A stretch of DNA of 64,000 nucleotides. Origin: an uncultured Coprobacillus sp. Its GTDB lineage: Bacteria > Bacillota_I > Bacilli_A > ML615J-28 > CAG-698. Both the position numbers and the translations under genes were made by a program. The notes beneath the pieces are model-generated. The model was not told the origin of the DNA. It ran no database searches and worked only from the letters and a program-made list of their open reading frames with translations. This document shows, one piece after another, positions 6,238-44,464 of the stretch; within the stretch, counting starts at the first letter, position 1; the number at the start of each line of letters is the position of its first letter. The DNA is taken from NCBI GenBank assembly GCA_964385755.1, contig CAYLPZ010000006.1:7468-71467 (forward strand), in the 5' to 3' direction.

Positions 6238-6284
6238 TAATATATTATTATTTTATCATATTTTTTATCTTAATTAAAGAAAAA

Positions 6285-6301
6285 AAGGCATTAAATGCCT
6301 T
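6285..6301 (-). terminator. Terminator after thioredoxin
   Basis: aaggca-ttaaa-tgcctt hairpin followed by a T run on the minus strand. Confidence 0.55.
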
Positions 6302-6602
6302 ATAAATATTTCTTAAAGCTATCAACCAAAACATCTTTTGGAATAAATCCTACTATTCTTTCTTGCACTTTACCATCTTTTACAATTATTAAAGCAGGGA
6401 TATTTGTAATCTTATACTCCATAGCTAGTTTTGTGTTTTCATCAACATCAGCACTAATAAATTCTATTTCTGTTAGTTCTTCACTAATTTCATCAATCAC
6501 TGGCTTTAACATTTTACATGGCATACACCAAGTAGCATTAAAATCAATTACTGATACTTTTTTTTCAAAAGTTAAATTGTTTTCTTTAATTTCTCTTAAC
6601 AT
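6300..6602 (-). CDS. trxA: Thioredoxin
   Basis: IDFNATWCMPCK active site, cis-Pro loop ITNIPALI; 100 aa. Confidence 0.9.
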   Translation of the reverse strand: MLREIKENNLTFEKKVSVIDFNATWCMPCKMLKPVIDEISEELTEIEFISADVDENTKLAMEYKITNIPALIIVKDGKVQERIVGFIPKDVLVDSFKKYL

Positions 6603-6608
6603 TTATTT

Positions 6609-21988: not shown

Positions 21989-22022
21989 AAAAACGTTCCA
22001 TTTGCTGAAAATGAAACGTTTT
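21989..22022. terminator. Intergenic stem-loop/terminator
   Basis: aaaacgtt..cattt / aaatg..aacgtttt inverted repeat with flanking A and T runs. Confidence 0.5.
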
Positions 22023-22039
22023 CTTTTTTTATACATATT

Positions 22040-23428
22040 TTATTTTTCTACGTAATAACCACAAGCGAATAACCACTGATCTTCCTCTTTGGCATATACA
22101 TCAGCCATTTCTACGAAACCATATCCATCGAAGAATAACCTTTGTGATAAACTAAACTTTTGTAAAAATTCTTTAAGTTCCATTGTAACATAACATACAC
22201 CATCGGAATTACATACTGCTGCATATTCATTTTCAATGAATAATTTATAATTTTCTGTGCCATCTGATACTGTTAAGTCATTATTCCCATTATACTCAAT
22301 AATATTTAATCCTTGGTCATAATAAGCACATGGAGCAGTAATTTTAGCACATAATGCAGGGCCAAAAGTATTAGTTACGCTGTCATATACATGCCAAAGT
22401 TTTGTTTCTTCGTTATACTTAAAATTATTACCATTTAATAGACCTGTTCCATTAGTTAATCCACTATAATAACTTCCTGTTCCACCATCTGAGTTAATAT
22501 ATTTATGAGTAGATGTAGAATATTTATCTGGTACTCTAGCAAGTTCACATTCCTTTGCAACCATCAATTTAACATCTGGATGATCAAGTTCATATTTATC
22601 ATAATATTCAATTGTAAAATCAATAGTAAGTGGGTATAAATCAATTTTTGATTCCGCAAATACAACAAATGTAAATACACTACCAATTTGTTCATCAGCT
22701 AAGCTTAACTTCCATTTGAAGTTTTTTGTGTAGCCTCCACTTTTACTAGCTCCGCCGTCATTATATGTTTTATCAAAGAATTTCGCCGCAAATGATCCAT
22801 TCCAAACATCAAGCTTTGGATTAATGATATCTTCATTGATATTTACATGTGATTCTACTATATATGTTCCAGATTTCTTTGGAGCATATTCGTAATATAC
22901 TTTATGCGATTTAGAAGTTAAAATAGTTCTATATGTTCCAGTTGTAGTGATTTCATACTCTTTGTATAATGCTGTTCCACTACCTTTACTTATTTTTCCA
23001 ACCTTTACTAGTTCAATCTCTACAGTACTGTTTTCATTATCTGCATTATAAATATTAGGATTATATGAGTAATTTTCAGGAGCACTCTCTAGATACACGT
23101 TATATGAACCATCTAATTTTATTTTCGCATAACCATTACTATCAATTACTGCTGAATATTGTGAATAATCATCAGCCCAAATGACAGTAATCTTCTCACC
23201 ATTTGTTGGAATATATATTTTCTTATTATATATTAATGATACACAAAACTCTGTTTTTTCATCGACTGGTTCATCTTGTTTTTTATCGTCTTCATCTTCA
23301 TTAGGATCTTTATTTTCATCATCTGAGATATCAATATCAGGAGGATTATCATCTATCACTTGTCCACATGAAATAAACATAAATAATAGAATAAAAATTA
23401 ATGATATACTAAATAATTTATTTTTCAT
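22040..23428 (-). CDS. Lipoprotein of unknown function, paralog of the 18338 and 34012 modules
   Basis: Lipobox FISC, acidic linker, YLESAPENYSYNP, YAPKKSGTY, C-terminal VTMELKEFL...QWLFACGYY. Confidence 0.7.
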   Translation of the reverse strand: MKNKLFSISLIFILLFMFISCGQVIDDNPPDIDISDDENKDPNEDEDDKKQDEPVDEKTEFCVSLIYNKKIYIPTNGEKITVIWADDYSQYSAVIDSNGYAKIKLDGSYNVYLESAPENYSYNPNIYNADNENSTVEIELVKVGKISKGSGTALYKEYEITTTGTYRTILTSKSHKVYYEYAPKKSGTYIVESHVNINEDIINPKLDVWNGSFAAKFFDKTYNDGGASKSGGYTKNFKWKLSLADEQIGSVFTFVVFAESKIDLYPLTIDFTIEYYDKYELDHPDVKLMVAKECELARVPDKYSTSTHKYINSDGGTGSYYSGLTNGTGLLNGNNFKYNEETKLWHVYDSVTNTFGPALCAKITAPCAYYDQGLNIIEYNGNNDLTVSDGTENYKLFIENEYAAVCNSDGVCYVTMELKEFLQKFSLSQRLFFDGYGFVEMADVYAKEEDQWLFACGYYVEK

Positions 23429-23446
23429 TTTCTTCCTCCTCCTTTT

Positions 23447-26071
23447 CTATCTATTTTTCTTAACTTTCTTAAATAATGCTTTGATATCTTGTAATCTTAA
23501 TTTTCTCACCATAATATCTACAACAAAAAGACCTGCAGCCAATGCTAAAAACAATGCGGTAAAATCAAAAACATACTTTTGTACATTTGAAAGGTTATTT
23601 ACCAAAACAAGGTTACCATCTTCAGACACCTTACCATTCACACTTACCATATAATAAAGGTTAGATGCTTCATATATTGTAAATGCGTCATATTCTGGAA
23701 GGTATGATACATTATATTTATACTCTGCTTTATAATTTAGTTCTCCAAGAGAGTATGATAACTCAAGAACATAACTACCGACTTGGGAAGTAGAAATTTC
23801 CGTCATATATTTTTGAACATTTGCATCAATAATACTTGCTAGTATTTTTTCTTCAGATGTTCCATCGGGATATGTCACTTTAATTTTAATTAATGAATCT
23901 TTGTTTAAAGTTGGTGCAGTAACAACCACTTCTGCTATTGTTCCTTTATTGTTACATTCTAATATGAATGCAGTATCTATTCTTTCACTAGGAATATTTG
24001 TAGTTACTATGTTGCTTAATACTTGTTTTTCCTGAACACTTTCCCATAAAGATATCCAATCACCAGAGATAGTTGAAGCAAAAGAAGAAACTTTTCCATT
24101 ACCATAATCCCAATAACTATACAATGGAATATTATACTCTACATCATCAATATCTGTATATGTAGCTTGTAAAACAACCTTAGCACTTAATTTTGCACTA
24201 TTATTATAAATACCTTTTACATTATTTAAAGTAGTTATGTTATTTACAAAACTATCTTTTTCTTTAACTATTGTTACAGGCATATCCTGATTTTCAAGAA
24301 CAACTTCATTTAATGAATTAAATACTTCATTATAGATTGTATCTTTAACATCATCAACTTCATGAATATAATGATAATATCCTTTACCAATTGAAGCTAA
24401 ATCTTTCATTAGCTGAATAGCATCAAGGTCATTTGTACAAGTTTGAATAGTTGATAAAATAATATTAGCTTCTCTCATAAGCGTAGCATAACGTCGTGAT
24501 ACTGATGTTTGTTCTTTATAAGGAAGTCCATCAGATATTAAGATTACTTCATTTTTGAAGTTTTCTTGTTCTAATAACGTTTTATAAGTATATCCTAAAG
24601 CTTCGCCTAAAAATGTTCCCTGATATGCTTCATGTTTATTAATCATTTCTTTAAGTTCATTACGATTAGAAGCATCTTTTAAGGTGAAAAGAGTTTCTAC
24701 CTCACCATAAAAAACTATGCAAGATACTTTAACATCATCTTCAAGTTTATCTAAGATCTCACAAGCAGCTTTTTTCGCAATTATCAATCGCCCAACTTGT
24801 TCCATACTTCTTGAAACATCTAAAAGAATAGTAACTGTTTTATTATTATCATCATTACCAAATTTTGTTGGTAAAAGATCACTTAATGCTTGTAATACTT
24901 CATCATCTTCATTATTTTGAATATATGTATTACCTATAGTAACTAAACTCTTACAAAATTCAGAAACTAATGTATTTAAACTGCTAACTAGTTTTGTATG
25001 ATTATAGAACTTTCTTATATCAACATTGGAAATTACAAATTCATCATAAATGCACAGTTCTTCAACTGTAAAAGGTACTTCATAGTTTCCAATATAAAAT
25101 GTTATATCAGCATCAGGATATAAAGCAAGTGCTGCTTCCTTATCAGATAAGTTATCTCCTAGAAATAATACTTTTACTTTTTCTGCCACATTTTGTGCGA
25201 ATGTATAATTGTTATTTATTTCTAATTCATCATCATCAGATGTTACTGTTACTCTATAACGATGTTCCCCTGCTGTAAGTGTGTTAAGCTTAAACGCTAC
25301 ACTATTATAACCCTTTTGTAATGTTTGAGCAGTTGAGTCATATTCTTCACCATCACAAAATAGTTTGACAATTACTCTTGATTCGCTATTTGCTTGTAAA
25401 TATACACTAACACTTTCATCATAATTAATGTATGTTGAAACAGTGTAAGATACTGAATTAATTTGTACTTCTTTAGTATCTTCCTTTATATTATTATCTA
25501 AATAAATTGCATCAACATATATATCATCATTTGCAAGTGCTTCAACTATTCCAACTAAGTCACTTTCATTTGTCTCTTCGCCATCAGATATTAAAACTAT
25601 CCTTTTAATCACATTATCTGTAAATAAGTTGGAAGCAAAGGAAAGAGCAGATGCAATGTCTGTTTGACTATCATCAACTGTAGATTCTTTTACACTTTTA
25701 AGTTTTTCTCCAATGTTTACTAAAACCTGTTGATCTTTTCCAAAACAAATAACTCCTATTTTTGAATTTCTAGGACTGTTATCTTTTAGATTTTCAATGT
25801 ATTCATCAATTAAATCTAAATTTTTATTTGAAGAATAAGATACATCAGCTAAAACATAAATATTTGTTTCAGTTATTACTTTTTCATATGTTGTTTTCAC
25901 TAATGCTAAACTAACTAAAATAACGATAACTATATGTAATATGAATGAAACAATATTATTTTTAGATTTATTATCCTTATTAACAGAAATTACAAAAGAA
26001 ACAACAACAATTATCAAAAGAGCTAATAATACAAATAATAAATATGGTCTATCGAAGCTGACGTTGCTCAT
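23447..26071 (-). CDS. Membrane-anchored double-VWA domain protein; start at 26071
   Basis: MSNVSFDRPYLLF.. with two N-terminal TMs, MIDAS motifs ADVSYSS and LDVSRSM, LISDG twice, C-terminal TM. Confidence 0.85.
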   Translation of the reverse strand: MSNVSFDRPYLLFVLLALLIIVVVSFVISVNKDNKSKNNIVSFILHIVIVILVSLALVKTTYEKVITETNIYVLADVSYSSNKNLDLIDEYIENLKDNSPRNSKIGVICFGKDQQVLVNIGEKLKSVKESTVDDSQTDIASALSFASNLFTDNVIKRIVLISDGEETNESDLVGIVEALANDDIYVDAIYLDNNIKEDTKEVQINSVSYTVSTYINYDESVSVYLQANSESRVIVKLFCDGEEYDSTAQTLQKGYNSVAFKLNTLTAGEHRYRVTVTSDDDELEINNNYTFAQNVAEKVKVLFLGDNLSDKEAALALYPDADITFYIGNYEVPFTVEELCIYDEFVISNVDIRKFYNHTKLVSSLNTLVSEFCKSLVTIGNTYIQNNEDDEVLQALSDLLPTKFGNDDNNKTVTILLDVSRSMEQVGRLIIAKKAACEILDKLEDDVKVSCIVFYGEVETLFTLKDASNRNELKEMINKHEAYQGTFLGEALGYTYKTLLEQENFKNEVILISDGLPYKEQTSVSRRYATLMREANIILSTIQTCTNDLDAIQLMKDLASIGKGYYHYIHEVDDVKDTIYNEVFNSLNEVVLENQDMPVTIVKEKDSFVNNITTLNNVKGIYNNSAKLSAKVVLQATYTDIDDVEYNIPLYSYWDYGNGKVSSFASTISGDWISLWESVQEKQVLSNIVTTNIPSERIDTAFILECNNKGTIAEVVVTAPTLNKDSLIKIKVTYPDGTSEEKILASIIDANVQKYMTEISTSQVGSYVLELSYSLGELNYKAEYKYNVSYLPEYDAFTIYEASNLYYMVSVNGKVSEDGNLVLVNNLSNVQKYVFDFTALFLALAAGLFVVDIMVRKLRLQDIKALFKKVKKNR

Positions 26072-27926
26072 AGCAATACACCATCCAATCCGCAATAAAT
26101 ACAATAATTAAAATAATGAAGAATACTAATAAATCATCATATATACCATTAATATATATATCTTTGTTGTCTCCAATTAAACTTAGACTTTCAACTTCAG
26201 GGAAAGTATTACTTTCCTCTTCTGGCATATTAACATATAGTAAGAATTCTTTTGTCTCATCGCCTATTTTAATTAATACTTTATATGTACCTACTTCATT
26301 TAATTTTAATTCTGCTCTTGCAACTTTAGTACTTAAATAAGAAATATCTCCGCTTGGGCTTTCTACTCTAATACTATCAAAATTAGAAGCTACATTAATT
26401 GTGGCTATATCACCACAAACAAACATTGACTTTTCCATTATATTTGGAAATGAATAATTAAGTAAATTTCTTGATAATACAATGTAATCCATAAGTAGTG
26501 GTAAATTTGAATCATGTAGATCAAATGCGAAAACTACCTCAATATTACCAGCATCAGTTGAACCGGTAAAAATAACAGGATTACCATCGTGAGTTAATAA
26601 TGTGGTAAATTTACGATATAATCCATACTTAGCATATTTTGCTACATATATTTCATCATCATTTTTCCCTTTAACTAAGTTTTTAAATTCTGCAGTTGAA
26701 TTTTTTGGATAAGTAAGAAGCATTCCACCATTTACTGTATTTTCTTCTTGGTTTTCTTCTTCATAACCTTCTATCATCACAACATCCTGAACGCTAAAAC
26801 CAGAGCCTTCAATGTTATTCATTATACCAAATAGCCAAACTGTACCATCAGTTGGCAATTTGCTAGGTGCAAAAGAATCAAAAACATAAAGACTATATCC
26901 TGTATATTCTGTAGTATAGTTTTCTCTAGAAATAACTTCAACTGAAATATTTCCTAAAGTTTTTATTACTGATTCAATATAAAATGGACGATCACTAATT
27001 ATTAAAGCATTATATGAATGTTCTTTTTCAACATTATAAACAATGTTGATATTATCTATCATTAAATTATCTTCATTCTTAATTTCAGTTTTAATTTGCG
27101 TAAAATCTGTTTTAGTACAGATAAAGTTAAATGGAGTTTTTACACCTTTTAACGCATTTACTTCTAAAGTACTTGCTAATGTTTCATCTACATATACACA
27201 AACATTCAAAACTTCATCCTTAGAATATGAGATAACATTACCAGTAATTTTTACTGCACCTGCAATTTCTTCATACTGTGTATCAAAAATTGCATAGTTT
27301 ACTAAATCATTAGTTACATTAATTACTGTAATATTTGTTGTTTCATATTCTCTATCAGTTAATAAATAAGTATCAAGTGAAGGATTGTTATTATATAAGT
27401 TTTGAACGTAATTTATAACATTATTATAATCAACACTTGCACCGGTAGGCTCTGTTTTATTTAATAATTCAATTGCGTTTTCTTTATCAACAGATTTTTC
27501 ATACACCACTTTTGCTTTATCACCAACAAAAACTAATGTATATGTACTACCTTTTCTTGAGTCTAATATTATTTTTTCAATTTCCTTTTTCGCAAGTTCA
27601 TATTTTGATATTCCTGATTCTAAAGCATTCATACTGCCTGAACCATCTAAAATAAAACAATAATCCTTAGCTACATTAGGTATTGTAAATACTGGTTGTG
27701 ATAAAACTAAGGAAAGCAAAATAATGGCAATTATTTGTAATATTAAACTTATGATTCCACTTATTAAACTAACTTGTTTCTTACGTTTTAAAAACTTTTC
27801 ACTTAATGTCCATAAATAAGTTGATGCAACAATTTGTTCAGTATATTTATTTTTGATAATATAAATAATAATAACAATTGGCACCCCAATTAAAGCAAGT
27901 AAACCTAAAGGATATGTAAAACTCAT
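26049..27926 (-). CDS. BatA-domain/VWA protein
   Basis: BatA-type N-terminus (FTYPLGLLALIGVPIVIIIY..VASTYLW), MIDAS LDGSGSM, LLTD, C-terminal TM. Confidence 0.85.
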   Translation of the reverse strand: MSFTYPLGLLALIGVPIVIIIYIIKNKYTEQIVASTYLWTLSEKFLKRKKQVSLISGIISLILQIIAIILLSLVLSQPVFTIPNVAKDYCFILDGSGSMNALESGISKYELAKKEIEKIILDSRKGSTYTLVFVGDKAKVVYEKSVDKENAIELLNKTEPTGASVDYNNVINYVQNLYNNNPSLDTYLLTDREYETTNITVINVTNDLVNYAIFDTQYEEIAGAVKITGNVISYSKDEVLNVCVYVDETLASTLEVNALKGVKTPFNFICTKTDFTQIKTEIKNEDNLMIDNINIVYNVEKEHSYNALIISDRPFYIESVIKTLGNISVEVISRENYTTEYTGYSLYVFDSFAPSKLPTDGTVWLFGIMNNIEGSGFSVQDVVMIEGYEEENQEENTVNGGMLLTYPKNSTAEFKNLVKGKNDDEIYVAKYAKYGLYRKFTTLLTHDGNPVIFTGSTDAGNIEVVFAFDLHDSNLPLLMDYIVLSRNLLNYSFPNIMEKSMFVCGDIATINVASNFDSIRVESPSGDISYLSTKVARAELKLNEVGTYKVLIKIGDETKEFLLYVNMPEEESNTFPEVESLSLIGDNKDIYINGIYDDLLVFFIILIIVFIADWMVYCYEQRQLR

Positions 27927-28807
27927 TTCATTACCTCCATTTCAGGTAATTCTTTTAAGAATATTTCACTTATCGATTTTTCACTTGGTACAAGCATATA
28001 ATTTGCACCTCTTACACGACAATAGTTTGTGATTCTATTAATTGTATAATTTAATGCTTCATTATAAGCTTTAATAATCTCTCTATTAATATTCTTTCGA
28101 TACTCTAAGTTAATGTTTTCCGAATCATAGAAGTGAACTTTTCCACGAATTGTTGGTTTTAGTTCTTCTTTTGATAATATTTGAAAACATATTAAATCTC
28201 TTTTCTTACTAACTAAATGATCAATAGCTGTTTCGTAATCATTGTCAGTTAAAAAATCTGAAATAATAATTGACATACCATCTCCATAACCAACATTAGT
28301 TGGTAGTAAACTTTCAGTGATAAATACATCATCGCCAAATTCAATATTATTCAGTTTACCAATTTCATTATAAAAAGCTTCTTTTCCTATAATTTGTGAT
28401 ACAACTTCGTTTATCCTATTATTTCTAATTGAATAAATAGATACTCTATCCATTTCACAAATTGAGAGGTATGCCAAAGTAGCAGCAATCTTTAAAGCCA
28501 TTTCTGCCTTGTTACTTTGACCATAATCCATTGAATGACTTGCATCAATATAAATTCGTGTATGAACTTGTCTTTCATCTAAATATAGTTTAAGGTACAA
28601 TTTCTCAAGTCTACCATAACAGTTCCAATCTATCTTTGTAATATCATCTCCTGGAATATATTCACGATGATCAACAAATTCACATGATGAACCATGTATC
28701 TTACTTTGGTGATTGCCACCAAACAAGCCTTTCAAATTATTTTTAAGTATTATTTGTAAAGATTCAACCTGCTGTAAAAATTCTTCGTTGATTACATATT
28801 TACTCAT
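27923..28807 (-). CDS. DUF58 domain protein (VWA-like partner of MoxR)
   Basis: GSSCEFVDHREYIPGDDITKIDWN, LYLKLYLDER, IYIDASHSM, IIISDFL. Confidence 0.9.
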   Translation of the reverse strand: MSKYVINEEFLQQVESLQIILKNNLKGLFGGNHQSKIHGSSCEFVDHREYIPGDDITKIDWNCYGRLEKLYLKLYLDERQVHTRIYIDASHSMDYGQSNKAEMALKIAATLAYLSICEMDRVSIYSIRNNRINEVVSQIIGKEAFYNEIGKLNNIEFGDDVFITESLLPTNVGYGDGMSIIISDFLTDNDYETAIDHLVSKKRDLICFQILSKEELKPTIRGKVHFYDSENINLEYRKNINREIIKAYNEALNYTINRITNYCRVRGANYMLVPSEKSISEIFLKELPEMEVMK

Positions 28808-28812
28808 AATGC

Positions 28813-29790
28813 TTATTTAGATAATTTTTTATTCTCCTTAATTAATAATTCAATAACTTTTTCAACATTTAAATGTTCATTTACAGCACTAAAATTAATT
28901 TTTATTCTATGTCTTAAAATAGGAAATGCCAATGCATCAATATCATCAATTGAAACATTATAATTACCATTAATTAATGCACGAATTTTACTTGCGGTAA
29001 TTAAAGCTTGACAAGCACGAGGTGATGCACCATATTTGATATATTTCTTAGCTGTTTCGCTTGTTTTTTCAATTTCAGGATGAGTGTTAGCAACTAAATT
29101 CATTGCGTAATCTAAAACATCTTTCGCAATTGGTACTTCTTTCGCAATTTTTCTCATCTCTAGTATTGTTTTTCCATCAACAACTGCTTCTGCTGTTTCA
29201 TCGAGTGTAATTTGTGTCATATTTACTATATTTGCTAGTTCCTCAGGTTTTGGAAATTCCATAATAACTTTAAACATAAAACGGTCCATTTGTGCCTCAG
29301 GAAGTGGGTAAGTTCCATCTTGTTCAATTGGATTTTCAGTTGCAAGGACAAAGAATGGCTCACTCATCAAGTGAGTTTGTTTACCAACAGTAACTTTATG
29401 TTCTTGCATAACCTCTAAAAGTGATGATTGTGTCTTAGGTGTTGCACGGTTTATTTCATCGCCCAAAATAAGGTTGGCAAAGATTGGACCTTTTTGGAAA
29501 ACTGTATTCATTTTTCCATTTTCATCTTTTTCGATTATATTTGTTCCAGTTACATCAGAAGGCATTAAGTCTGGTGTAAATTGAATTCTTGAAAATGGTA
29601 AAGATAATACTCTACTTAAACTTCTTACAAGACGAGTTTTTCCTACTCCAGGAACACCTTCTAGTAAAACATTCCCTCCAGCAATTATTGCAATGATCAC
29701 GCTATCAATAACATCATCTTGTCCAACTATATCTTTATGAATCTCATTTTTTATTTTTTTTACTGTACTGCTAAAAACTTCAATTTCCAT
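28813..29790 (-). CDS. moxR: MoxR-family AAA+ ATPase (MoxR proper)
   Basis: LLEGVPGVGKT, RIQFTPDLMPSDVTG, LGDEINRATPKTQSSLLEVMQE, ATENPIEQDGTYPLPEAQMDRF, GASPRA. Confidence 0.95.
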   Translation of the reverse strand: MEIEVFSSTVKKIKNEIHKDIVGQDDVIDSVIIAIIAGGNVLLEGVPGVGKTRLVRSLSRVLSLPFSRIQFTPDLMPSDVTGTNIIEKDENGKMNTVFQKGPIFANLILGDEINRATPKTQSSLLEVMQEHKVTVGKQTHLMSEPFFVLATENPIEQDGTYPLPEAQMDRFMFKVIMEFPKPEELANIVNMTQITLDETAEAVVDGKTILEMRKIAKEVPIAKDVLDYAMNLVANTHPEIEKTSETAKKYIKYGASPRACQALITASKIRALINGNYNVSIDDIDALAFPILRHRIKINFSAVNEHLNVEKVIELLIKENKKLSK

Positions 29791-29793
29791 TTT

Positions 29794-31221
29794 TTACTCC
29801 TCGTCTTCTTTTATTCCAAATAATATATCATAGTAATATTCAAAATATTCTTTTAATTCTTCAGGTATTTTTCCTTCTTCTAATCTTCCTAAAATATCAT
29901 TTTGATATTTAGAAATAACATCGCTAAACTCAACCTTTCCTTTTTCAGGATCAAAAAATGAATCATCACTACCAAAGATTATTTCACCAGTACCATAACC
30001 ACCAGAGAAGTCACCATCTTGTGGTGGAGTATTATTTTCTGGCTTTTCTGGTTTTTCATGAGTAACATCTTGACTACCTTCACCCGTATTATTATTAGGA
30101 TCATCTTCATACAAGCTAAATATATATCTTAATTGACTAATAATGTAGTTTGTAATAGATTCATTCATCTTTTGATTTACTGCTGAATTTAGTATTTTCT
30201 CTTTTTCTAAAGAAACGACATTACATACTTCTGTGAATATATCACTAGAATTCTTAGTTACTAATAACTTATCATTAAAGTCAACTAATACTCTATATAA
30301 TTCATCTTCTTTATTGATATTTGATGCTTTTAGAAGCTGTCCAAACTCTATATCTAAGAAAGTAATAGCTTCACTACTTCCACCAATTGTTGTAATAAAT
30401 CCATCAATCGCATTATTAATTGCATCAATATCTAAATCATTAATCTTAAATGCTAGAGTAGTGACTAAAGCGTAATTAGATACTTTTAAAACTTCAAATA
30501 TCTCATTATTTGTATTAATAATATCAAGTTTTAAAGTAATATCCTCAATCACAGTTAATACTGCTGTTTTCATTTCGCTTTCTTTATCAGATTGTTTTAT
30601 TTGTTCTACTAATGTATTAAGTTTTTCTATATCATAAGTTTTTAAATCTTCTTGTAAAGAAGATTCTTCAACATATTTAATTAAATCTTTAAGCGCAATT
30701 AGTGTCCAATCATCAACATTGTAATCTGGATCAATTATCACAATTTCTTCTTCTTTAGGAATAGAAATCGCGGTAATGCAAACAGTTATAGATAATCCAA
30801 AAATAACAAACAAAATAGCACTAAAACGCATTGTTAGGCGTTTTAATGAAATACTTTTAAGTATGTTGTTAGTGTTTTCTCTTTGTTTATTAATGATTAA
30901 TCCTTCTTCATCTTTAAATTCGATCATTGTTTGAACTTTTTCTGCTAAACCTAATCTATTATCGATTTTTTTCGCAGCCTTTTTATCATTTGGTTTTAAT
31001 ATCAAAAATAATACTGTAAAGAGTGCGAAAAACACTCCTAGACCAATGATAATTAAGTAAAGTACATTAAACTTTATTTTCGATAACTTAATGATTAAAT
31101 AAGGTATCGAAAAAGACAAAATTCCGAGTGATGAAGATATTATTAAACATTTAAGAAATACTTCAAGTATAATCTTTCTTTTAAATTTTTCAAATATCTT
31201 TTCCATAATATATTCTCTCAT
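29794..31221 (-). CDS. Membrane protein with three TMs and a long helical C-terminal region (MoxR operon accessory)
   Basis: Three hydrophobic segments; AAKKIDNRLGLAEKVQTM resembles the accessory genes in MoxR/VWA operons; translationally coupled. Confidence 0.65.
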   Translation of the reverse strand: MREYIMEKIFEKFKRKIILEVFLKCLIISSSLGILSFSIPYLIIKLSKIKFNVLYLIIIGLGVFFALFTVLFLILKPNDKKAAKKIDNRLGLAEKVQTMIEFKDEEGLIINKQRENTNNILKSISLKRLTMRFSAILFVIFGLSITVCITAISIPKEEEIVIIDPDYNVDDWTLIALKDLIKYVEESSLQEDLKTYDIEKLNTLVEQIKQSDKESEMKTAVLTVIEDITLKLDIINTNNEIFEVLKVSNYALVTTLAFKINDLDIDAINNAIDGFITTIGGSSEAITFLDIEFGQLLKASNINKEDELYRVLVDFNDKLLVTKNSSDIFTEVCNVVSLEKEKILNSAVNQKMNESITNYIISQLRYIFSLYEDDPNNNTGEGSQDVTHEKPEKPENNTPPQDGDFSGGYGTGEIIFGSDDSFFDPEKGKVEFSDVISKYQNDILGRLEEGKIPEELKEYFEYYYDILFGIKEDEE

Positions 31222-33179
31222 TATTTATTTTCTAATAGTTTCAATATTTCATTTTCTAGTTTTTCTTCATCTAATGAACTAACAATTACATTTCTAATTA
31301 TTCCCTCATCATCAATAATAATTGTATACGGGAATGTATCTTTACCACCAAGAGCATCATAATATGATGCACTATCGCTATCATAACCAAATAAAATTTC
31401 AAAATCATTAAATTGTTTATCAATATAATCCTTAACTCCTTGAGGGTCACTAGCATATAATGCTCCTTCGTGGATCGCAATTACTGAAATTTCATCTTTG
31501 TATTTTTTGTATACTTTATTAAAGTGTGGTAATTCTTTTACACATGGAGTACATGTAGTAAACCAGAAATTAATTATTGTAATCTTACCACGATTTTCAA
31601 ATACACTAAATTCTTTATCTGAACCTATAATTGAAATTGATTTATTAATACACAAATCACCTATTTTATTTCCTATTGATATTCCACTAATTGAAGTTAC
31701 AATTGTTGCAAGGAATTCATTATCTGTGATTAATTTATTTTCTTTTATTTGAATCTTATTATCTAAATCTATGTAAACAGAATATGGATAGAAAGCATCT
31801 TTCACAAATGATTTCAATAACTTATTATTTTGATCTTTTGCAACTTTTATATTATCTATTTTTTTACTGATATCATTATTAGTGATAATAATAATATCAA
31901 GTTTTTCTTTTACAACCTCATAATTAGCATATGATGATAACTTTTCTGCTTCAACGCTATCAATATCATCATCAAAATAAAGTAGTGAAGCTTTGTTATG
32001 ATTCTCATAAACAGTTCCATCATTTAATGTAATTGTCACATGACAAATATCTGATATTTCATATATTTTCTTTTGGACATTTGCATAAATCAAAGCAGCA
32101 ATTAATATTACATTTAGAATAATACCAAATGCTAGTTTAAATCCTCTTTGTTTTTTCTTTTCTTTAATTAAAGAATTTGTATTTATATTTTCAGTATCAT
32201 TTTTCTCACATTCAACTGAAACTTCTATTCCTTGGTCTTTTAATCTTTCAAGTTCTAATTCATGATGTATTTTCTCTTTGATGTGTTTCCATTTGATGGC
32301 ATGATTATGACAAACATCAATACACTCACCACACTGAATACACTCTGAATCCCCTACTGTTTTGATGTCCATTTTACAATGAGCTACACAAGCTCCACAG
32401 TTGTTACATTTATCCTTTTCTACTTTAACACCAATTATTGCAAGTTTATTAAATATTCCATAAATCGCACCAAGTGGGCAGAAGAAACGACAAAATACTC
32501 GGTATACAAACACTGAAGTAACAATAAATAATACTAAAAGTGCAAATTTCCAAGTAAATAATCCTCCAAGCATTGTAAAAAATGGCGTATTATTTGGATT
32601 AGATAGTAATGCTATTGCTCCTTCAAATGTACCAGCTGGGCAAATGTATTTACAAAATGCGGGAAGAGGAATGTTAGCAGTTTGTAAAGCGTATATAAGT
32701 GGTAATATTATTACAAATACAGCTAATATTACATATTTTAGATACGATAAAGCTTTTGTTATTTTACTTTTCTTAAGTTTTGGAGTTTTAATTTTATACA
32801 ATAACTCTTGACCAAGGCCAACAGGACATAGCCAACCACAAATCGTTCTACCAAAAATAATCATATAAAGTAGCAAAATACCTAGAAGATAAGTAGGTAG
32901 TTTTGTTTTACTTTCTGCTAAAGCATTCTGAAGCGAACCTAAAGGACAGGCCCCTATCGCACCAGGGCATGAGTAGCAGTTTAATCCAGGTACACAAACA
33001 TTTTTCGTTGCTTTTTTAAATATTTCACCAGAAATAAAACCCTTAATATGTGCATTGTAAAGTAAGGCGGCATAAAGCTGTATCACTTTTCTTTTAGATG
33101 GTTTTATCTTAGTGAAGAATTTCTTAATTTTACTTTCTTTTTTATTTTCTAAATTATTTAATTTATTACTTTCCATCAT
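31221..33179 (-). CDS. Membrane 4Fe-4S-binding protein (NapH/MauN/RdxB-like) fused to a degenerate redoxin and a TlpA-type redoxin
   Basis: CVPGLNCYSCPGAIGACP, CGWLCP, CKYICP, CRFFCP, CNNCGACVAHC, CIQCGECIDVC; then a TM and INFWFTTCTPCVKELP, FPYTIIID. Confidence 0.85.
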   Translation of the reverse strand: MMESNKLNNLENKKESKIKKFFTKIKPSKRKVIQLYAALLYNAHIKGFISGEIFKKATKNVCVPGLNCYSCPGAIGACPLGSLQNALAESKTKLPTYLLGILLLYMIIFGRTICGWLCPVGLGQELLYKIKTPKLKKSKITKALSYLKYVILAVFVIILPLIYALQTANIPLPAFCKYICPAGTFEGAIALLSNPNNTPFFTMLGGLFTWKFALLVLFIVTSVFVYRVFCRFFCPLGAIYGIFNKLAIIGVKVEKDKCNNCGACVAHCKMDIKTVGDSECIQCGECIDVCHNHAIKWKHIKEKIHHELELERLKDQGIEVSVECEKNDTENINTNSLIKEKKKQRGFKLAFGIILNVILIAALIYANVQKKIYEISDICHVTITLNDGTVYENHNKASLLYFDDDIDSVEAEKLSSYANYEVVKEKLDIIIITNNDISKKIDNIKVAKDQNNKLLKSFVKDAFYPYSVYIDLDNKIQIKENKLITDNEFLATIVTSISGISIGNKIGDLCINKSISIIGSDKEFSVFENRGKITIINFWFTTCTPCVKELPHFNKVYKKYKDEISVIAIHEGALYASDPQGVKDYIDKQFNDFEILFGYDSDSASYYDALGGKDTFPYTIIIDDEGIIRNVIVSSLDEEKLENEILKLLENK

Positions 33180-33182
33180 ATT

Positions 33183-33950
33183 TTATCCTAATCCTATACA
33201 CTCAGTACAAATATTAATAGCTTTATTTAAAACATCAGTAGCTCCACCGTTAATTATTCCTATGATAATTAAAGTAATAGCAAGACAAATAATACATACT
33301 CTAATTATTAATAATTTCTTATTATCATTTTTAATATTTTCTTGATTATTTGCTTTTCCATTCTTATTAATAATCACTTTTATTAATTCAATTGATCTTA
33401 ATGCACTTTTATTTTCATAATAAAAGCAAATAATTAAACTAATAAAAGAAATTACTACCCAAGGCAATAAATGTATAGTCATTTCAACAGCTTGTTTTGC
33501 AAGATTTCCTTGAGAATTGAAATGATTAACATTTAATAAATAAAGTAGACCCATACATGAGCATAGTATAATTATTATTATGTTAATAAGCCAAATATTC
33601 TTTCTTTTACTTTCTTCTTTATTTAACAAAAATAAATCATTATCATTATCAATTTTTGGACACATACCTTCATATATTTTAAGTTTTGCAACATTTGTAA
33701 TTTTACTTACGTTTAAATCTTTTGAATTACTTAATTTATGGTAAATATAACTAGCAATAATTAATGCTACCCAAATTAAAATAACTGGAATAATTTGTAA
33801 AAGATATTTTCCACATATTTCAGCTGTAAATTCTTTTTTGTTACCATAATATATTCTAAGTATTTGAATAATAAAAACTATACCCATTAAAATTGTTTGA
33901 ATTGATACAAGAGATTGAAATAATTTATATAATTTCTTATTTTTTTCCAT
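33183..33950 (-). CDS. Polytopic membrane protein ending in a CD1871A-type CxxC tail
   Basis: About five TMs; C-terminus IGIINGGATDVLNKAINICTECIGLG, immediately upstream of the 4Fe-4S gene. Confidence 0.7.
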   Translation of the reverse strand: MEKNKKLYKLFQSLVSIQTILMGIVFIIQILRIYYGNKKEFTAEICGKYLLQIIPVILIWVALIIASYIYHKLSNSKDLNVSKITNVAKLKIYEGMCPKIDNDNDLFLLNKEESKRKNIWLINIIIIILCSCMGLLYLLNVNHFNSQGNLAKQAVEMTIHLLPWVVISFISLIICFYYENKSALRSIELIKVIINKNGKANNQENIKNDNKKLLIIRVCIICLAITLIIIGIINGGATDVLNKAINICTECIGLG

Positions 33951-33981
33951 TGTATTCTCCTTTCATATATTAAGAAAAGAA

Positions 33982-34001
33982 GGGCCTTAAATTTAAGGCC
34001 C
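33982..34001 (-). terminator. Strong intra-operon stem-loop
   Basis: Perfect gggccttaa-at-ttaaggccc hairpin followed by ttcttttctt on the minus strand. Confidence 0.65.
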
Positions 34002-34011
34002 CTAATTCTTT

Positions 34012-37000
34012 TTATTTATTAACTGGACCTACATATTTATAATAGTAGCAAAGTTTTAACCATGATTCTTCAATTCCTGCAAATAGATATTTATTAATGA
34101 TTAACCATAATACATCAGCAAATTTCTTATCTACTTTAACGCAGCCATAAAGCTCACTTGCTTCATCAGTTATTTTGTTATTTTCGATATACTCTAAAAC
34201 ATACTGTGTAAAATCATAATTTATATTTCCTTCAGGGCGTTTTACATAAGTATACCCATTTTCTTCTGTATATTCACCTTCACCAACTTGCTCTACATAG
34301 TATTCATTACCTTCTTTATCAACACAAACATAGTAACGATGAATATTATTTTCTTCATCTAAAATTGTCATTCTGAAATAATCTTCTTCATCATAAATCA
34401 TTTGACCATATGAATCTTTGTTGAAGTTAAATCCATCATATCTTTCTGAAGCAAGCACACTTAGTGATACTCCTAAGAAACCTACCATATATTCAACATC
34501 ACAGTAAACAAAATCATCTGAAGCATTTGAGTTAATAACATGATAATAACCATCTTCACCTAGCATTACATTGATATGATTTCCTGAAATGATATCAGAC
34601 ATTTCCCCATCAGATGATGTAAAGTATCCAGGAGATGCAAGAGTAAATAATTCTATTCTTTCTCCAACATAAGAAATTGCAACATTTATTGTATCATATA
34701 GTGTTGGATCATAGAAACCCGCTCTAAATAAATATGTTTTTCCTTCTTCTAAGTAAACATAACATTCAAAGTTTGGATCTAGGTTTTCACCATTGCTCAT
34801 TTGAATGAAGTATTTTCTCAATTCAGTTTCTTGTTCATCAACTGCAACACCTTCGTTATCACAAATCCAAGCAGCAGTTTCAATTTCTCCAGTTGAATAG
34901 AATTTATACGCTCCTGATTTTGATGCAGTAAATCCAAAGATTAAACCTCTTGGAAGAATTACACGATCAAATACACCAGAAGCTTGAGCAGGAGAATTAA
35001 TACCATCTCCTTCAAGCATAATTGGTTCAAAGTAACATACACCAATTGTAGGAACACCAAGTTCAACTCCATTTGTACCATACGCATCATAATATACACA
35101 TAACTCAAGCCATTGATTAATGTTATCTCTTGCATTCTCATGGCCTAAAGCTTTTGCTATTTGTTTTAATGCATTAGCAAGTTCTTCAGTTACTGGAGCA
35201 TATCCAACAGTAGAATTATGAGCATAAACTGAATATTTTTCAACAATATCAGTGTAATCTATTCCATCAAGACCAATACATAAACCTTCAAGAGATATAG
35301 TATATAAATCAGAATTACTCCACTTTGTACCGCTTAACATATCAGCTAAAAGTAATGGTCCATTTTTAGTATTAACATGATAATATCCATCTACTTCATT
35401 ATAAACAACTTGTGCATATTTTGGATATGCCATTGTAAGTTCATTATGTTGTCCAATTGCACACTCTCTAAAAATATATGTTTCTTTATCAATGTCTTCT
35501 TTTTTGATAATACGTAAATTAGTTACATAGATGCTATCATCACCACCATTATAAGATGAGTCTTTCATATAACAAAAACCAACTTCAAATGATCCATCTT
35601 CATTTGCAACATATGAATAACATGTATCCCATGCAGAACTTTGTCCAGAAATCTGTGCAACAATAGTTTTATCAAATGTAACATAAAGAAAATCATATTC
35701 TTCACTTGATGCATAATAATCAAATGCAAAGCCTTCACCAGCTTTTAATGTCACATTAACATATACTATTGAATATGATGGATGTTTGTCTTGATTAGAT
35801 GGTTTAATACAGTCTTTTCCTTGATAATTCGTAACAACCCATGGCCAAGAGAAATCTTTATCTTCTTCGTTATATTCAGGGCGATACTCAGTGCTAAATT
35901 TTGAGCCATCATAATTTGTTCCGCTTGCTGCTTGTTCTAATTTGCTAGATTCTTCTTGTGTAATATCAGGTTTTTGATATGTTCCACCTTCACTAACTTG
36001 ACCAGTATATGCAGGAAAATAATCTTCAGCAACATATCTATCAAATGTTTGTGTCCACTTTTCAGTAGCTGTTTGTGCACCTTTTTCAATTTGTGCAATT
36101 AATCCATAACTATCAATTATAACTGTTGTAGGATAATTAGTAACACCAAACATTAGTGTTAATCCTGGTTCCATTGTTAAATTTGTTGGATCACAATCAT
36201 AGTCTGCGGCAACAAAGAATGTAATGCCATTTGCTTCTTTATAATTTGTAATTGAAGCTAAAGTATCGCCATTACCCGCAATCATTGGGTTAACAGCAAT
36301 AATCGCAACTTCATCTTTATAATTAACAGTTTCATTATTAGTATTAGTATAACTTGACTCATAAGCATTTACCATTGCTGGGAACTCATATTGACAGTAT
36401 GCACAAGTAGAAAACCAGAAGTTTAAAATTACTACTTTATACTCTTTTAATAATTCATATAATTTCAATTTATTATTATCTGTATCAGTAAGTGTAAAAT
36501 CATACATTAAATCACCTACTTGATATAAATGACCTTTTTCAGCAATTATTCCTTCTAAAGAGTCAAGTTCGCAAACAACTTCTATTGGAGTTGCAAGTAA
36601 ATCAGTTTGATACATTTCTTGATTTAAATAATAACCTTCACGACCTTCAACCACAACATCATATTTATTAGGCTTTTGACTAGTTGTAAAAGTACCATCT
36701 GTTTTTGTGTAGCCTTCATCAACAATATCATCACCTAAATAGAATGTAACGTAAAAATCAGCTAATGGTTTCCCAGCAATATCCTTAACTTTTATACTAT
36801 AATCTAAGTTCTGTGGGTCAACAATAGGTTTATCATCTTTCTTTTTTGTTGTTATTTGTAAGATTGTCTCACATTCTTCATAAGTAACTGTAATAGTATA
36901 TGTTCCTTCATTTTTAAGATTTTCATAATCACTTGAAGAAACCATCTCTTTAGTAATATTAATTTTCTCACTACTATCGTCAGACTTAATTACATTAATT

Positions 37001-37170
37001 TTAATTGAAGTAATTTTTTGATCTATTTCATCTACATAAATATACTCTGGAACAGAATCTTTTACTACTTCAATGCTCACAACCTTTACATTATCATCTT
37101 TACAAGCACTTAAAGAACATAATGAAATTAATGCTAACAATAGTACAAAATATTTAATAAATTTTTTCAT
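34012..37170 (-). CDS. Large lipoprotein with Ig-like, transthyretin-like and TlpA/redoxin domains plus two copies of an uncharacterised domain
   Basis: Lipobox LSAC; redoxin ILNFWFSTCAYCQYEFP and YPTTVIIDSYG; repeats GYYHV..VTEELANAL..WLELCVYY and GYYHV..VDKKFADVL..WLKLCYYY. Confidence 0.8.
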   Translation of the reverse strand: MKKFIKYFVLLLALISLCSLSACKDDNVKVVSIEVVKDSVPEYIYVDEIDQKITSIKINVIKSDDSSEKINITKEMVSSSDYENLKNEGTYTITVTYEECETILQITTKKKDDKPIVDPQNLDYSIKVKDIAGKPLADFYVTFYLGDDIVDEGYTKTDGTFTTSQKPNKYDVVVEGREGYYLNQEMYQTDLLATPIEVVCELDSLEGIIAEKGHLYQVGDLMYDFTLTDTDNNKLKLYELLKEYKVVILNFWFSTCAYCQYEFPAMVNAYESSYTNTNNETVNYKDEVAIIAVNPMIAGNGDTLASITNYKEANGITFFVAADYDCDPTNLTMEPGLTLMFGVTNYPTTVIIDSYGLIAQIEKGAQTATEKWTQTFDRYVAEDYFPAYTGQVSEGGTYQKPDITQEESSKLEQAASGTNYDGSKFSTEYRPEYNEEDKDFSWPWVVTNYQGKDCIKPSNQDKHPSYSIVYVNVTLKAGEGFAFDYYASSEEYDFLYVTFDKTIVAQISGQSSAWDTCYSYVANEDGSFEVGFCYMKDSSYNGGDDSIYVTNLRIIKKEDIDKETYIFRECAIGQHNELTMAYPKYAQVVYNEVDGYYHVNTKNGPLLLADMLSGTKWSNSDLYTISLEGLCIGLDGIDYTDIVEKYSVYAHNSTVGYAPVTEELANALKQIAKALGHENARDNINQWLELCVYYDAYGTNGVELGVPTIGVCYFEPIMLEGDGINSPAQASGVFDRVILPRGLIFGFTASKSGAYKFYSTGEIETAAWICDNEGVAVDEQETELRKYFIQMSNGENLDPNFECYVYLEEGKTYLFRAGFYDPTLYDTINVAISYVGERIELFTLASPGYFTSSDGEMSDIISGNHINVMLGEDGYYHVINSNASDDFVYCDVEYMVGFLGVSLSVLASERYDGFNFNKDSYGQMIYDEEDYFRMTILDEENNIHRYYVCVDKEGNEYYVEQVGEGEYTEENGYTYVKRPEGNINYDFTQYVLEYIENNKITDEASELYGCVKVDKKFADVLWLIINKYLFAGIEESWLKLCYYYKYVGPVNK

Positions 37171-37192: not shown

Positions 37193-37429
37193 TTAATTTA
37201 GCCAAAAATATATTATAACCATTGCTATTAGAAAGCAAAGGAGGATTAATAATACTCTAGGTAAATAAGCTATTAATGCGGACATAATTATTTGCCTTTT
37301 TTCTTCTTTAGAAACACTTACATTTGTTTCTTCATTTGTTTTTTTTCCTCTACTCCAATATGCGTCAACATTCATATTAAATATTGTATGACCATCATCT
37401 TCGTATTTTCTTTGTTTTTTCTTTTTCAT
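37193..37429 (-). CDS. Small membrane protein
   Basis: 78 aa, YEDDGHTIFNMNVD motif and a C-terminal TM; coupled to oppF (1-nt gap). Confidence 0.6.
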   Translation of the reverse strand: MKKKKQRKYEDDGHTIFNMNVDAYWSRGKKTNEETNVSVSKEEKRQIIMSALIAYLPRVLLILLCFLIAMVIIYFWLN

Positions 37430-37430
37430 A

Positions 37431-38600
37431 TTAGATTTTGTCTACCATTGATAATTTCTCATTTATTTTTTCTAAAGTGATTTTTATCTTCTCATTATTT
37501 TCTTTTTTATCAATGTTTTTATTTTTTTTGTTGTTTTCCAATTCTTTTAACTCATTGTTCAAAGCATCAAGTTCTAAAGAAAGTTTATCATATTCTTCTT
37601 TCTTATCAATTACTTCTTTATCAAACAAATGGCAAGCAACAAAATGATTTTGAGTATTTTCAATATATCTAGGTTGCTTTAATGCACATACTTTCATACA
37701 ACTTGAGCATCTTGTGTGAAACTTACATCCTTTTGGTGGATTAGCTGGAGATGGAATATCTCCTTTTAAAATCACTCTATTCATTTTCACATCAGGATCA
37801 GGTACTGGAACAGCACTAAATAATGCCTTAGTATATGGATGAAGAGGGTTTGCAAATAAATCTTCTGTATCACCATATTCCATAACATTTCCTAAATACA
37901 TAACAACAATTTGATTAGTGATATATTTTACAACAGATAAATCATGAGAAATAAATAAATATGTTAATCCCATTGTATTCTGTAAATCTTTAAGTAAATT
38001 GATAATTTGAGCTTGAATAGATACATCTAAGGCACTAACTGGTTCATCACATATTACAAGTTCTGGATTAACTGCTAATGCTCTTGCAATACAAATTCTT
38101 TGTCTTTGCCCACCACTAAACTCATGTGGATAACGATCATAATAATTAGGATTAAGACCGCACTTTTTCATAATATCAATAACATAATCAACTACTTTAT
38201 CTTTAGGTACAATATGATGTACTTTTACTGCTTCGCCAATTATATTCCCAATTGTCATTCTAGGCGATAAACTAGAATATGGGTCTTGAAAAATAAGCTG
38301 CATTTTAGTACGATATTTCATCATTTCTTTTTTTGATAGTTTAGTAATATCTTCACCATTAAAAATTATTTGTCCACCATCAGCATCATAGAGTTTAAGA
38401 ATAGTTCTTCCTAAAGTAGTTTTACCACAACCACTTTCACCTACTATACCAATAGCACTACCCTTCTTCACTTTAAAGCTAATATCATCTACTGCTTTTA
38501 AATATTTTAACGGTTTTCCAAATAGATTTTTGTCTATCACAAAGTACTTTTTGACATTATTTACTTCTAAAATATACTCTGGTGTTTGTCTATTTTCCAT
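37431..38600 (-). CDS. oppF: Oligopeptide ABC transporter ATP-binding protein
   Basis: GESGCGKTT, QLIFQDPYSSL, YPHEFSGGQRQRI, ICDEPVSALD, oligo_HPY domain (HPYTKAL; CKFHTRC), coiled-coil tail. Confidence 0.92.
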   Translation of the reverse strand: MENRQTPEYILEVNNVKKYFVIDKNLFGKPLKYLKAVDDISFKVKKGSAIGIVGESGCGKTTLGRTILKLYDADGGQIIFNGEDITKLSKKEMMKYRTKMQLIFQDPYSSLSPRMTIGNIIGEAVKVHHIVPKDKVVDYVIDIMKKCGLNPNYYDRYPHEFSGGQRQRICIARALAVNPELVICDEPVSALDVSIQAQIINLLKDLQNTMGLTYLFISHDLSVVKYITNQIVVMYLGNVMEYGDTEDLFANPLHPYTKALFSAVPVPDPDVKMNRVILKGDIPSPANPPKGCKFHTRCSSCMKVCALKQPRYIENTQNHFVACHLFDKEVIDKKEEYDKLSLELDALNNELKELENNKKNKNIDKKENNEKIKITLEKINEKLSMVDKI

Positions 38601-38603
38601 ATC

Positions 38604-39770: not shown

Positions 39771-39783
39771 ATATATCCACCTC

Positions 39784-40848: not shown

Positions 40849-40859
40849 AATTCCACCTA

Positions 40860-41867: not shown

Positions 41868-41882
41868 ATTATTCTCGCTTTA

Positions 41883-44453: not shown

Positions 44454-44464
44454 AATTCCTCCAT

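Follow-up and report, generated by a model that had tools for sequence, protein, structure and literature searches.

What joins a set of thiol-redox genes to a MoxR/VWA module within a single gene array, and does either set depend on the other? The question is raised by nine genes, all on the minus strand, at positions 22040–37170 of a stretch of 64,000 nucleotides (the window) from an uncultured Coprobacillus sp. (GenBank assembly GCA_964385755.1, contig CAYLPZ010000006.1, positions 7,468 to 71,467). The G+C content of the window is about 28%, and its named relatives are metagenome-assembled genomes (MAGs) of Bacilli, Anaeroplasmataceae or Acholeplasmatales. Three of the nine genes encode redox proteins (module Y) and six encode MoxR/VWA proteins (module Z). 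A first-pass annotation, made from the sequence alone, had read them as one operon, in which a transmembrane thiol relay is the missing redox partner of Bat-type operons and the MoxR/VWA proteins mature or remodel the relay complex. The nine genes with their coordinates and domains, the four intact DxSxS motifs and the spacing with its single hairpin-bearing gap were all verified directly. For the function of the region we favour, with about even confidence, a different reading, namely, that it consists of two autonomous modules, a reductive relay that aids protein breakdown at the cell surface and the uptake of peptides, and a Bat-like module joined to it in this lineage by a facultative link. 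The novel item of general reach is the Fe-S/thioredoxin relay tied to a protease and the Opp importer, and the fusion to MoxR genes is lineage-specific and facultative.

Proteins of the redox trio

Module Y comprises three genes, listed in the direction of transcription:

34012–37170, minus strand: Y1, LipoRedoxin, a surface lipoprotein of 1052 amino acids with a lipobox, an Ig-like domain, a beta-sandwich, a ResA-like redoxin domain and two C-terminal modules
33183–33950, minus strand: Y2, the CxxC-tail protein, 255 amino acids with five predicted transmembrane (TM) helices (NF040920; hydropathy)
31221–33179, minus strand: Y3, the NapH fusion, 652 amino acids, a NapH-like/2x[4Fe-4S]/ResA-like protein (family matches, motif positions)

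The redoxin domain of LipoRedoxin matches AhpC-TSA (1.8e-9) and the ResA subfamily NF002854 (3.5e-14), with its CxxC at C256/C259. Searches against PDB profiles retrieve ResA at E ~1e-23, and the AlphaFold2 model (pLDDT 87) is matched in Foldseek by ResA (TMt 0.85–0.89) and also by the C-terminal domains of DipZ. Residues C256, C259 and C691 are present in all 31 sequences and C1041 in 29 of them. Both C-terminal modules end in W-L-x-x-C-x-Y-Y.

The NapH fusion is built, from the N-terminus, of a Cx5Cx2Cx6C motif, three CX3CP motifs on the NapH-like membrane domain, two [4Fe-4S] motifs (CxxCxxCxxxC), one TM helix, an extracytoplasmic linker domain and a redoxin domain. The Fer4_5 match (PF12801) is well above threshold (5.7e-19, 68.3 bits versus a cutoff of 22), and the redoxin domain (5.5e-13; CxxC at C543/C546) also matches ResA NF002854 at 6.4e-16. 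In the NapH-like part, 18 cysteines, which make up the Cx5Cx2Cx6C, the three CX3CP and the two cluster motifs, are invariant in 85 of the 85 sequences from which cysteines were counted; the CxxC of the fused redoxin domain is kept in 80. The outer part of the protein is modelled confidently and superposes on ResA with TMt 0.89 and a root-mean-square deviation of 1.8 Å. For both redoxin domains of the trio the reductive ResA/CcmG/TlpA class is the best match by sequence as well as by fold; they share the signature C-x-x-C-x-x-E-[FL]-P, and the ResA structures matched in Foldseek are 4nmu and 1su9.

The CxxC-tail protein matches the CD1871A family NF040920 with 39.4 bits versus a cutoff of 32, over residues 218–255, that is, a model of the last 38 residues (TM helix and CxxC) which is silent on the five-helix body. 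The CxxC itself (C248/C251) is kept in 84 of the 85 sequences and is predicted by the positive-inside rule to face outward. By hydropathy and the same rule, the cluster motifs of the NapH fusion would be cytoplasmic, and its redoxin domain and that of LipoRedoxin would be outside, like the CxxC tail. The family name offers no functional clue, because the only mention found of the surroundings of the name-giving C. difficile gene lists CD18710 under 'conjugative transposon' (PMC12772354). The tail also weakly resembles the conjugal pilin-like family NF045849 (E = 0.008).

Genomic neighbourhood of the redox trio

The array does not start at 37170, the 5' end of LipoRedoxin. Gaps of at most 22 nucleotides (nt) continue upstream to 53636, so that the full co-directional array measures 31.6 kb and the 15-kb nine-gene region is its continuation. 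The upstream genes (module X) are:

46173–53636, minus strand: cell-envelope-proteinase-like S8 subtilase of 2487 amino acids with PA, Fn3_5, Big_2 and BspA-type leucine-rich repeat domains (Pfam), the first gene of the array
37193–46162, minus strand: a 565-amino-acid lipoprotein, an 856-amino-acid family-5 solute-binding lipoprotein (SBP), OppB, OppC, OppD, OppF and a 78-amino-acid single-TM protein, in this order and followed by LipoRedoxin (Pfam)

Within 37193–46162 the gaps are 1–15 nt or the genes overlap, and the 78-amino-acid membrane protein is conserved. Orthologues of these genes (49–89% identity) lie beside the redox trio in relatives as well as in several Clostridia.

Relatives of the NapH fusion number in the thousands, and at least 598 GTDB species representatives (Firmicutes) encode it. 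We collected 89 loci (the 80 best plus those of close relatives), in 86 of which the CxxC-tail gene immediately precedes the NapH fusion. Neighbours were counted within 10 kb in the 77 loci from Clostridia and other Firmicutes outside the lineage, 40 of which have at least 8 kb of sequence on each side. None of the 77 contains a MoxR, DUF58, BatA, VWA or TM475 gene in this range. Among the 40 well-flanked loci, a LipoRedoxin homologue is found in 26, usually downstream and on the opposite strand, with a Lipo462-like gene following it in five; a giant S8 homologue (divergently upstream) or an orthologous SBP-OppBCDF set (directly upstream) is found in 20. S8, Opp or LipoRedoxin, in any combination, occurs in 30 of the 40, versus none for the genes of module Z. 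The S8 homologues are full-length (32–39% identity over ~7 kb), and in 20 of the 77 loci such a gene is found upstream of the CxxC-tail/NapH pair in divergent orientation. The neighbours conserved with the relay are thus those of surface proteolysis and peptide uptake, as in the window. The first-pass idea that the relay is a general partner of MoxR/Bat modules is not borne out by these counts. Even a close relative with 52% identity in the NapH fusion (L087) has the trio followed by a Lipo462-like protein of 1086 amino acids and lacks module Z. In the same locus, a gene for an ApbE flavin transferase (2459–3427) lies ~2.8 kb upstream of the redox trio, with unrelated genes in between.

The MoxR/VWA module and its junctions with the trio

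Downstream of the NapH fusion follow the six genes of module Z:

29794–31221, minus strand: Z1, TM475, a protein of three TM helices whose extracytoplasmic domain is large and helical and whose tail is acidic; always the first gene of the module
28813–29790, minus strand: Z2, MoxR AAA+ ATPase (AAA_3 1.4e-60, AAA_lid_2; Walker A GVPGVGKT, Walker B LILGDE)
27923–28807, minus strand: Z3, DUF58 protein without TM helix (DUF58 2.1e-26; DxSxS at D88)
26049–27926, minus strand: Z4, BatA-type protein (BatA_N 6.7e-11 with double TM, VWA domain with metal-ion-dependent adhesion site (MIDAS) at D94, C-terminal TM helix)
23447–26104, minus strand: Z5, 2xVWA protein (N-terminal double TM, two VWA domains with MIDAS at D87 and D429, C-terminal TM helix); the gene call in the source contigs begins 11 codons later
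22040–23428, minus strand: Z6, Lipo462, a lipoprotein of 462 amino acids, paralogous to the LipoRedoxin scaffold but lacking the redoxin domain

The four DxSxS motifs are those of DUF58 (D88), BatA (D94) and 2xVWA (D87 and D429), and VWA_2 is among the family matches of the module. TM475 has no Pfam or NCBIfam match; its family comprises 1104 representatives at E <= 1e-3 (50%-identity clusters). The VWA domain of BatA is predicted to face outward, following the precedent of Borrelia BB0173, for which an outward VWA topology was demonstrated by experiment (PMC5700661). With the VWA domains predicted outside, the VWA/MIDAS domains of the module could not service cytoplasmic Fe-S clusters. Module Z is thus predicted to consist of a cytoplasmic AAA+/DUF58 engine, three membrane proteins with outward domains, which carry VWA/MIDAS in two of them, and a lipoprotein of its own. 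Assignment of the module to anti-phage defence, as a MoxR-vWA-beta-propeller ternary system, was rejected: bpMoxR scores 65 bits versus 203 for AAA_3, a propeller is absent, and the PADLOC results are weak P-loop matches.

The genomic contexts of the module were gathered, and dereplicated, from a metagenome scan seeded with the BatA-VWA protein of Anaeroplasma and from look-ups of distant TM475 representatives. A homology search with the BatA-VWA protein of the window returned close relatives of the same clade (clade A) alone and holds no reverse-synteny information. In every locus with enough sequence on either side, and down to 25–28% identity in TM475, the same unit TM475-MoxR-DUF58-BatA-2xVWA-Lipo462 is found. 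TM475 is upstream of MoxR in every locus that reaches upstream of MoxR, and Lipo462 follows the 2xVWA gene in every locus that reaches past it. The unit stands alone in at least six related contexts (L103/104, L106, L112, L115/116, L130–132, L133/134), flanked by housekeeping or unrelated genes.

Adjacency of the two modules is found in about ten lineage clusters of Acholeplasmatales-like Bacilli and takes three different forms. In clade A, which includes the window and relatives with 53–70% identity in the NapH fusion, the order is Y-Z and the NapH fusion precedes TM475. The order Z-Y-X is seen in the Clostridium sp. CAG:307-like, Anaeroplasma and L088 lineages. In L004 a Lipo462-like gene is followed by LipoRedoxin after a gap of 17 nt. 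The third form is that of L110, where the NapH fusion is followed by two Big_3 lipoproteins and then by TM475, in the tightly packed order Y, lipoproteins, Z, ..., X. In one further locus (L090), module X is directly beside module Z with no trio between them. The refuting condition proposed with the first-pass annotation, that the two halves be separately transcribed and rarely adjacent in other genomes, speaks against that annotation across the wide distribution of the relay but does not hold inside the lineage.

Large surface lipoproteins (800–1270 amino acids, some with Big_3) regularly follow module Z, as in the window (19485–21926), L103, L112, L130 and L133, and in L110 such lipoproteins precede it (2674–6698). 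The gene at 19485–21926 has a TG-extended promoter-like site of its own (21987–21959, minus strand).

A lipoprotein family shared by both modules

The sole concrete thread between modules Y and Z is the Lipo462/LipoRedoxin family. By sequence, Lipo462 and the LipoRedoxin scaffold are paralogues, with the redoxin insert missing from Lipo462. Pairwise BLASTP between the two is not significant (best E = 0.15); their kinship surfaced only by profile–profile comparison and by a tblastn cross-match in locus L040. With hhalign, Lipo462 aligns to the scaffold at a probability of 98.5% (E = 1.8e-15). The repeated C-terminal module is matched as well, at 95% (E = 3.9e-8). This extracellular module with a terminal invariant cysteine is present in two copies in LipoRedoxin and in one copy in Lipo462, where the invariant residue is C456 within W-x-x-A-C-x-Y-Y. 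Lipo462-like genes also adjoin LipoRedoxin in Clostridia that lack module Z. The link between the modules probably runs through the shared lipoprotein family rather than through a dedicated chaperone–client relation.

Spacing and transcription signals of the array

Short spacing is common in this genome. In the 64-kb window every gene of at least 120 amino acids except one is on the same strand, with short gaps, and the large open reading frames between 19 and 54 kb are all on the minus strand. Distances between the nine genes range from -56 to +18 nt, with the exception of a 61-nt gap between LipoRedoxin and the CxxC-tail gene, which contains a hairpin. The signals found along the array are as follows:

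54061–54036, minus strand: terminator of the preceding unit (sequence scan)
53733–53705, minus strand: TG-extended -10 promoter-like site before the protease gene (sequence scan)
33980–34003, minus strand: terminator-like hairpin with T-run between the LipoRedoxin and CxxC-tail genes (folding versus shuffles)
21989–22023, minus strand: terminator hairpin with T-run ending the array, 3' of Lipo462 (-14.4 kcal/mol, z = -4.9)

From the promoter-like site of the protease gene to 21.9 kb, the only intergenic terminator-like sites on the minus strand are 34003–33980 and 22023–21989; two weaker matches sit inside genes. The former has the canonical shape of an intrinsic terminator, with a 10-bp stem containing five G-C pairs and a T-run. 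It folds at -18.3 kcal/mol (z = -3.1), and none of 200 shuffles folds as stably. A stable hairpin occupies the same gap in all 10 relatives, from both clades (L003, L004, L005, L083, L084, L086–L089, L092). Since its position is conserved while the stem sequence differs in every lineage, the hairpin is a real element, which suggests a leaky terminator or a transcript-stabilising element setting stoichiometry. No promoter was found, by scan or by eye, between the hairpin and the CxxC-tail gene, so read-through is indistinguishable from weak internal initiation. By these criteria, LipoRedoxin would close the protease/Opp unit, and the CxxC-tail gene, the NapH fusion and the MoxR module would form the next stretch, reached by read-through or from a weak promoter.

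Between the NapH fusion, TM475 and MoxR there is no terminator; the CxxC-tail gene ends 3 nt before the NapH fusion, which overlaps TM475 by 1 nt. Relatives keep the whole gene order down to 53% identity in the NapH fusion, indicating that the arrangement is more than chance. The first-pass view of the redox and MoxR halves as a single operon therefore stands in that they abut without a terminator in the window and keep their order in relatives; it has to be modified in that the hairpin splits off LipoRedoxin and the array begins far upstream.

Comparison with known systems

CcdA/DsbD is generally regarded as the basis of disulfide reduction outside the cytoplasm of Gram-positive bacteria. The CcdA/DsbD-ResA pathways (CcmG, StoA, Etrx) resemble module Y in having thioredoxin folds with CxxC on the outer face, tethered to the membrane or lipoproteins, and a membrane protein encoded alongside; in the pneumococcal Etrx1/2 system the reductase is a surface lipoprotein, as is LipoRedoxin. 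However, no gene of the array matches the PF02683 transporter, and in its place module Y has a NapH-like polyferredoxin domain and a five-TM partner with a CxxC tail. Its terminal reductase is a multidomain lipoprotein of 1052 amino acids, and its neighbours are the protease and Opp, whereas the known pathways have cytochrome c maturation, sporulation or Msr genes as neighbours.

The NapH fusion shares with NapH/MauN/NosR/PceC-type proteins a Fer4_5 domain with CX3CP followed by two [4Fe-4S] motifs. The role proposed for such proteins, a conduit from cytoplasmic or membrane electron pools to an extracytosolic redox module, is the one we propose here. NapH-like proteins have been described as modular extracytosolic electron-transfer units, typically with a flavinylated FMN-binding domain (Meheust et al. 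2021, PMC8238504). By contrast, the extracytosolic module of the NapH fusion is a thioredoxin fold, and the protein differs further in its three CX3CP motifs and the extra N-terminal Cx5Cx2Cx6C. It falls below the cutoffs for NapH and MauN (TIGR02163, 90.6 versus 213 bits; NF007013, 72.5 versus 234), and family searches identified no Nap, Nos or Pce-type reductase or FMN_bind genes near it.

As for module Z, BatI of Bacteroides, bb0170-0176 of Borrelia, the bat genes of Leptospira and cmdA-D of Rhizobium likewise combine MoxR, DUF58, BatA_N/VWA and a second VWA protein in one operon, and the VWA domains are predicted to be outside the cytoplasmic membrane in those operons too. Module Z differs in having TM475 upstream and Lipo462 downstream as constant extra members, two VWA domains in the second VWA protein, and a host range of wall-less-type Bacilli, in which it is here fused to a thiol relay. 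BatC (TPR), BatD and BatE (SH3) have no match in any gene of the array. Finally, module X is comparable to lactococcal PrtP and Opp, where a giant S8 subtilase (PA, Fn3_5) is likewise encoded with a family-5 binding protein and OppBCDF, but module X is coupled to a disulfide-reducing relay and extra lipoproteins, and its protease carries BspA-type leucine-rich repeats. A literature search (CD1871A, NapH-thioredoxin systems, protease–disulfide links) returned no description of module Y, module Z or their association, nor of the coupling of a PrtP/Opp-like set to such a relay.

Proposed function and alternative explanations

Module Y is most likely a reductive thiol-disulfide relay, the direction, path and substrates of which we infer from the class of its redoxin domains, the NapH topology and the protease/Opp neighbourhood. 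Electrons would enter at the cytoplasmic ferredoxin-type [4Fe-4S] clusters of the NapH fusion and would then pass, via invariant membrane-proximal cysteines (the three CX3CP motifs and the CxxC tail of the partner protein), to the fused outward ResA-like domain. From there they would move on to the ResA-like domain of LipoRedoxin, which would finally reduce extracellular disulfides. In such a relay the NapH-like Fe-S membrane protein would take the place of CcdA/DsbD in the known pathways. Because the conserved genomic partners are the S8 protease and the Opp importer, the likely job of the relay would be to reduce disulfides of extracellular protein or peptide substrates, aiding proteolysis and peptide uptake; alternatively, its target may be the surface lipoprotein family, whose single invariant cysteines it would maintain in reduced form. 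Any contact between modules Y and Z would take place at the surface, through the Lipo462/LipoRedoxin family.

Several observations weigh against this reading. The first-pass description of the redox genes as a relay is sustained as regards the coherence of the set and the strong conservation of its cysteines; the electron path across the membrane is conjecture, because the AlphaFold2 model of the NapH-like membrane/Fe-S domain has pLDDT <50 and allows no cysteine geometry to be inferred. In no member of the NapH-like family is thiol reduction known to have been demonstrated. Fold and PDB-sequence searches recognised no counterpart of the C-terminal modules of LipoRedoxin, and the association with S8/Opp is limited to about half of the well-flanked loci. 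Lineages with module Z alone could carry module Y elsewhere in the genome, the two cooperating in trans. In addition, the three junction types may derive from one ancestral juxtaposition followed by local shuffling, and for this reason they are weaker evidence for selection than they look.

How closely the two modules depend on each other can be judged from their distribution. If the MoxR/DUF58/VWA proteins were a dedicated assembly or remodelling chaperone of the relay, and the relay the missing partner behind the Bat 'export of reducing power', the tight, terminator-free junction from the NapH fusion through TM475 to MoxR, the adjacency kept through three junction types in the lineage and the paralogy of Lipo462 with LipoRedoxin would all be in keeping. 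MoxR-VWA pairs are also generally known as maturation factors of metalloenzymes. The Bat reducing-power hypothesis is on record, but the same source reports a bat deletion in Leptospira without a redox phenotype (PMC3557215). Moreover, the trio occurs without a module Z gene within 10 kb in all 77 loci from other Firmicutes and also in L087, module Z occurs without an adjoining trio in at least six related contexts, and the predicted outward VWA domains put MIDAS out of reach of the clusters of a cytoplasmic Fe-S domain. We therefore consider this explanation improbable. Autonomy of both modules elsewhere also fits the absence of any functional link, in which case the adjacency would be an ancestral juxtaposition retained in slowly rearranging, strand-biased genomes. 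Tight spacing is the genomic norm here, as nearly all genes are on one strand with short gaps, and a conserved terminator-like hairpin already divides the trio itself. Nevertheless, the adjacency outlasts at least two rearrangements (X-Y-Z, Z-Y-X, Y-lipoproteins-Z-...-X) with gaps of ~17 nt or less, module X can be found directly beside module Z (L090), and the two modules have a lipoprotein family in common. About four of about ten distinct module Z contexts are beside module X or Y, versus a random expectation of ~1% if the contexts are independent, and we regard a complete lack of linkage as rather unlikely.

The direction of the chemistry is a separate matter. Module Y could instead oxidise thiols or form disulfides, act as a respiratory-type quinol dehydrogenase of the NapH-like kind, or serve as a redox sensor. 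NapH proper is part of a quinol dehydrogenase, and the match to TIGR02163 is real, if below the cutoff. However, both redoxin domains best match the reductive ResA/CcmG/TlpA class, family searches of the array revealed no nitrate reductase, cytochrome or FMN-binding partner, and the hosts are presumably gut anaerobes with ferredoxin-based metabolism, making such roles very improbable. A bolder version of the favoured reading is possible, although still on the unlikely side. Module Y would then represent a transmembrane disulfide reductase of a new class, shared by at least 598 Firmicute species, in which cytoplasmic Fe-S clusters and membrane-edge cysteines drive a surface thioredoxin cascade with which gut anaerobes unfold disulfide-rich host or dietary proteins for the protease and uptake by Opp; in Acholeplasmatales-like bacteria, the Bat-like module would dock on the same lipoprotein family. 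Its chemistry would be analogous to that of ferredoxin:thioredoxin reductase or heterodisulfide reductase and not to the cysteine-only DsbD/CcdA relay.

If true, a NapH-like Fe-S alternative to CcdA/DsbD would be a new way to move reducing power across the membrane, and it would link reducing power to protein foraging by abundant gut Firmicutes. To our knowledge, the function of Bat/MoxR-VWA operons has been obscure for 25 years. The lineage described here is a natural case of a Bat-type module physically joined to an explicit thiol relay with which it shares a lipoprotein family, and it opens the old 'reducing power' idea to testing, although coupling of the two modules is not general. Docking of the Bat-like module on the lipoprotein family would, if true, give a Bat-type operon a concrete redox setting for the first time.

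Other genes of the window

At the low-numbered end of the window (1534–2511, 4006–4896, 6609–7478, 15528–17629) are genes for a choloylglycine (bile salt) hydrolase, a flavodoxin-ferredoxin fusion, a thioredoxin-reductase-like flavoprotein, a TM1586-type nitroreductase and a DAO-Rieske fusion. The choloylglycine hydrolase suggests a gut origin. The flavoprotein, ferredoxin, nitroreductase and Rieske proteins are possible cytoplasmic redox partners of the relay that are not linked to the locus. Upstream of the array, positions 54682–61137 hold a partner-switching set (HD/STAS, STAS-kinase-like, SpoIIE phosphatase and HATPase_c_2 anti-sigma-type kinase), with a CotH-kinase-domain protein ~0.6 kb beyond it, and positions 62121–63722 encode an N-terminal TIR domain fused to BspA-type leucine-rich repeats.

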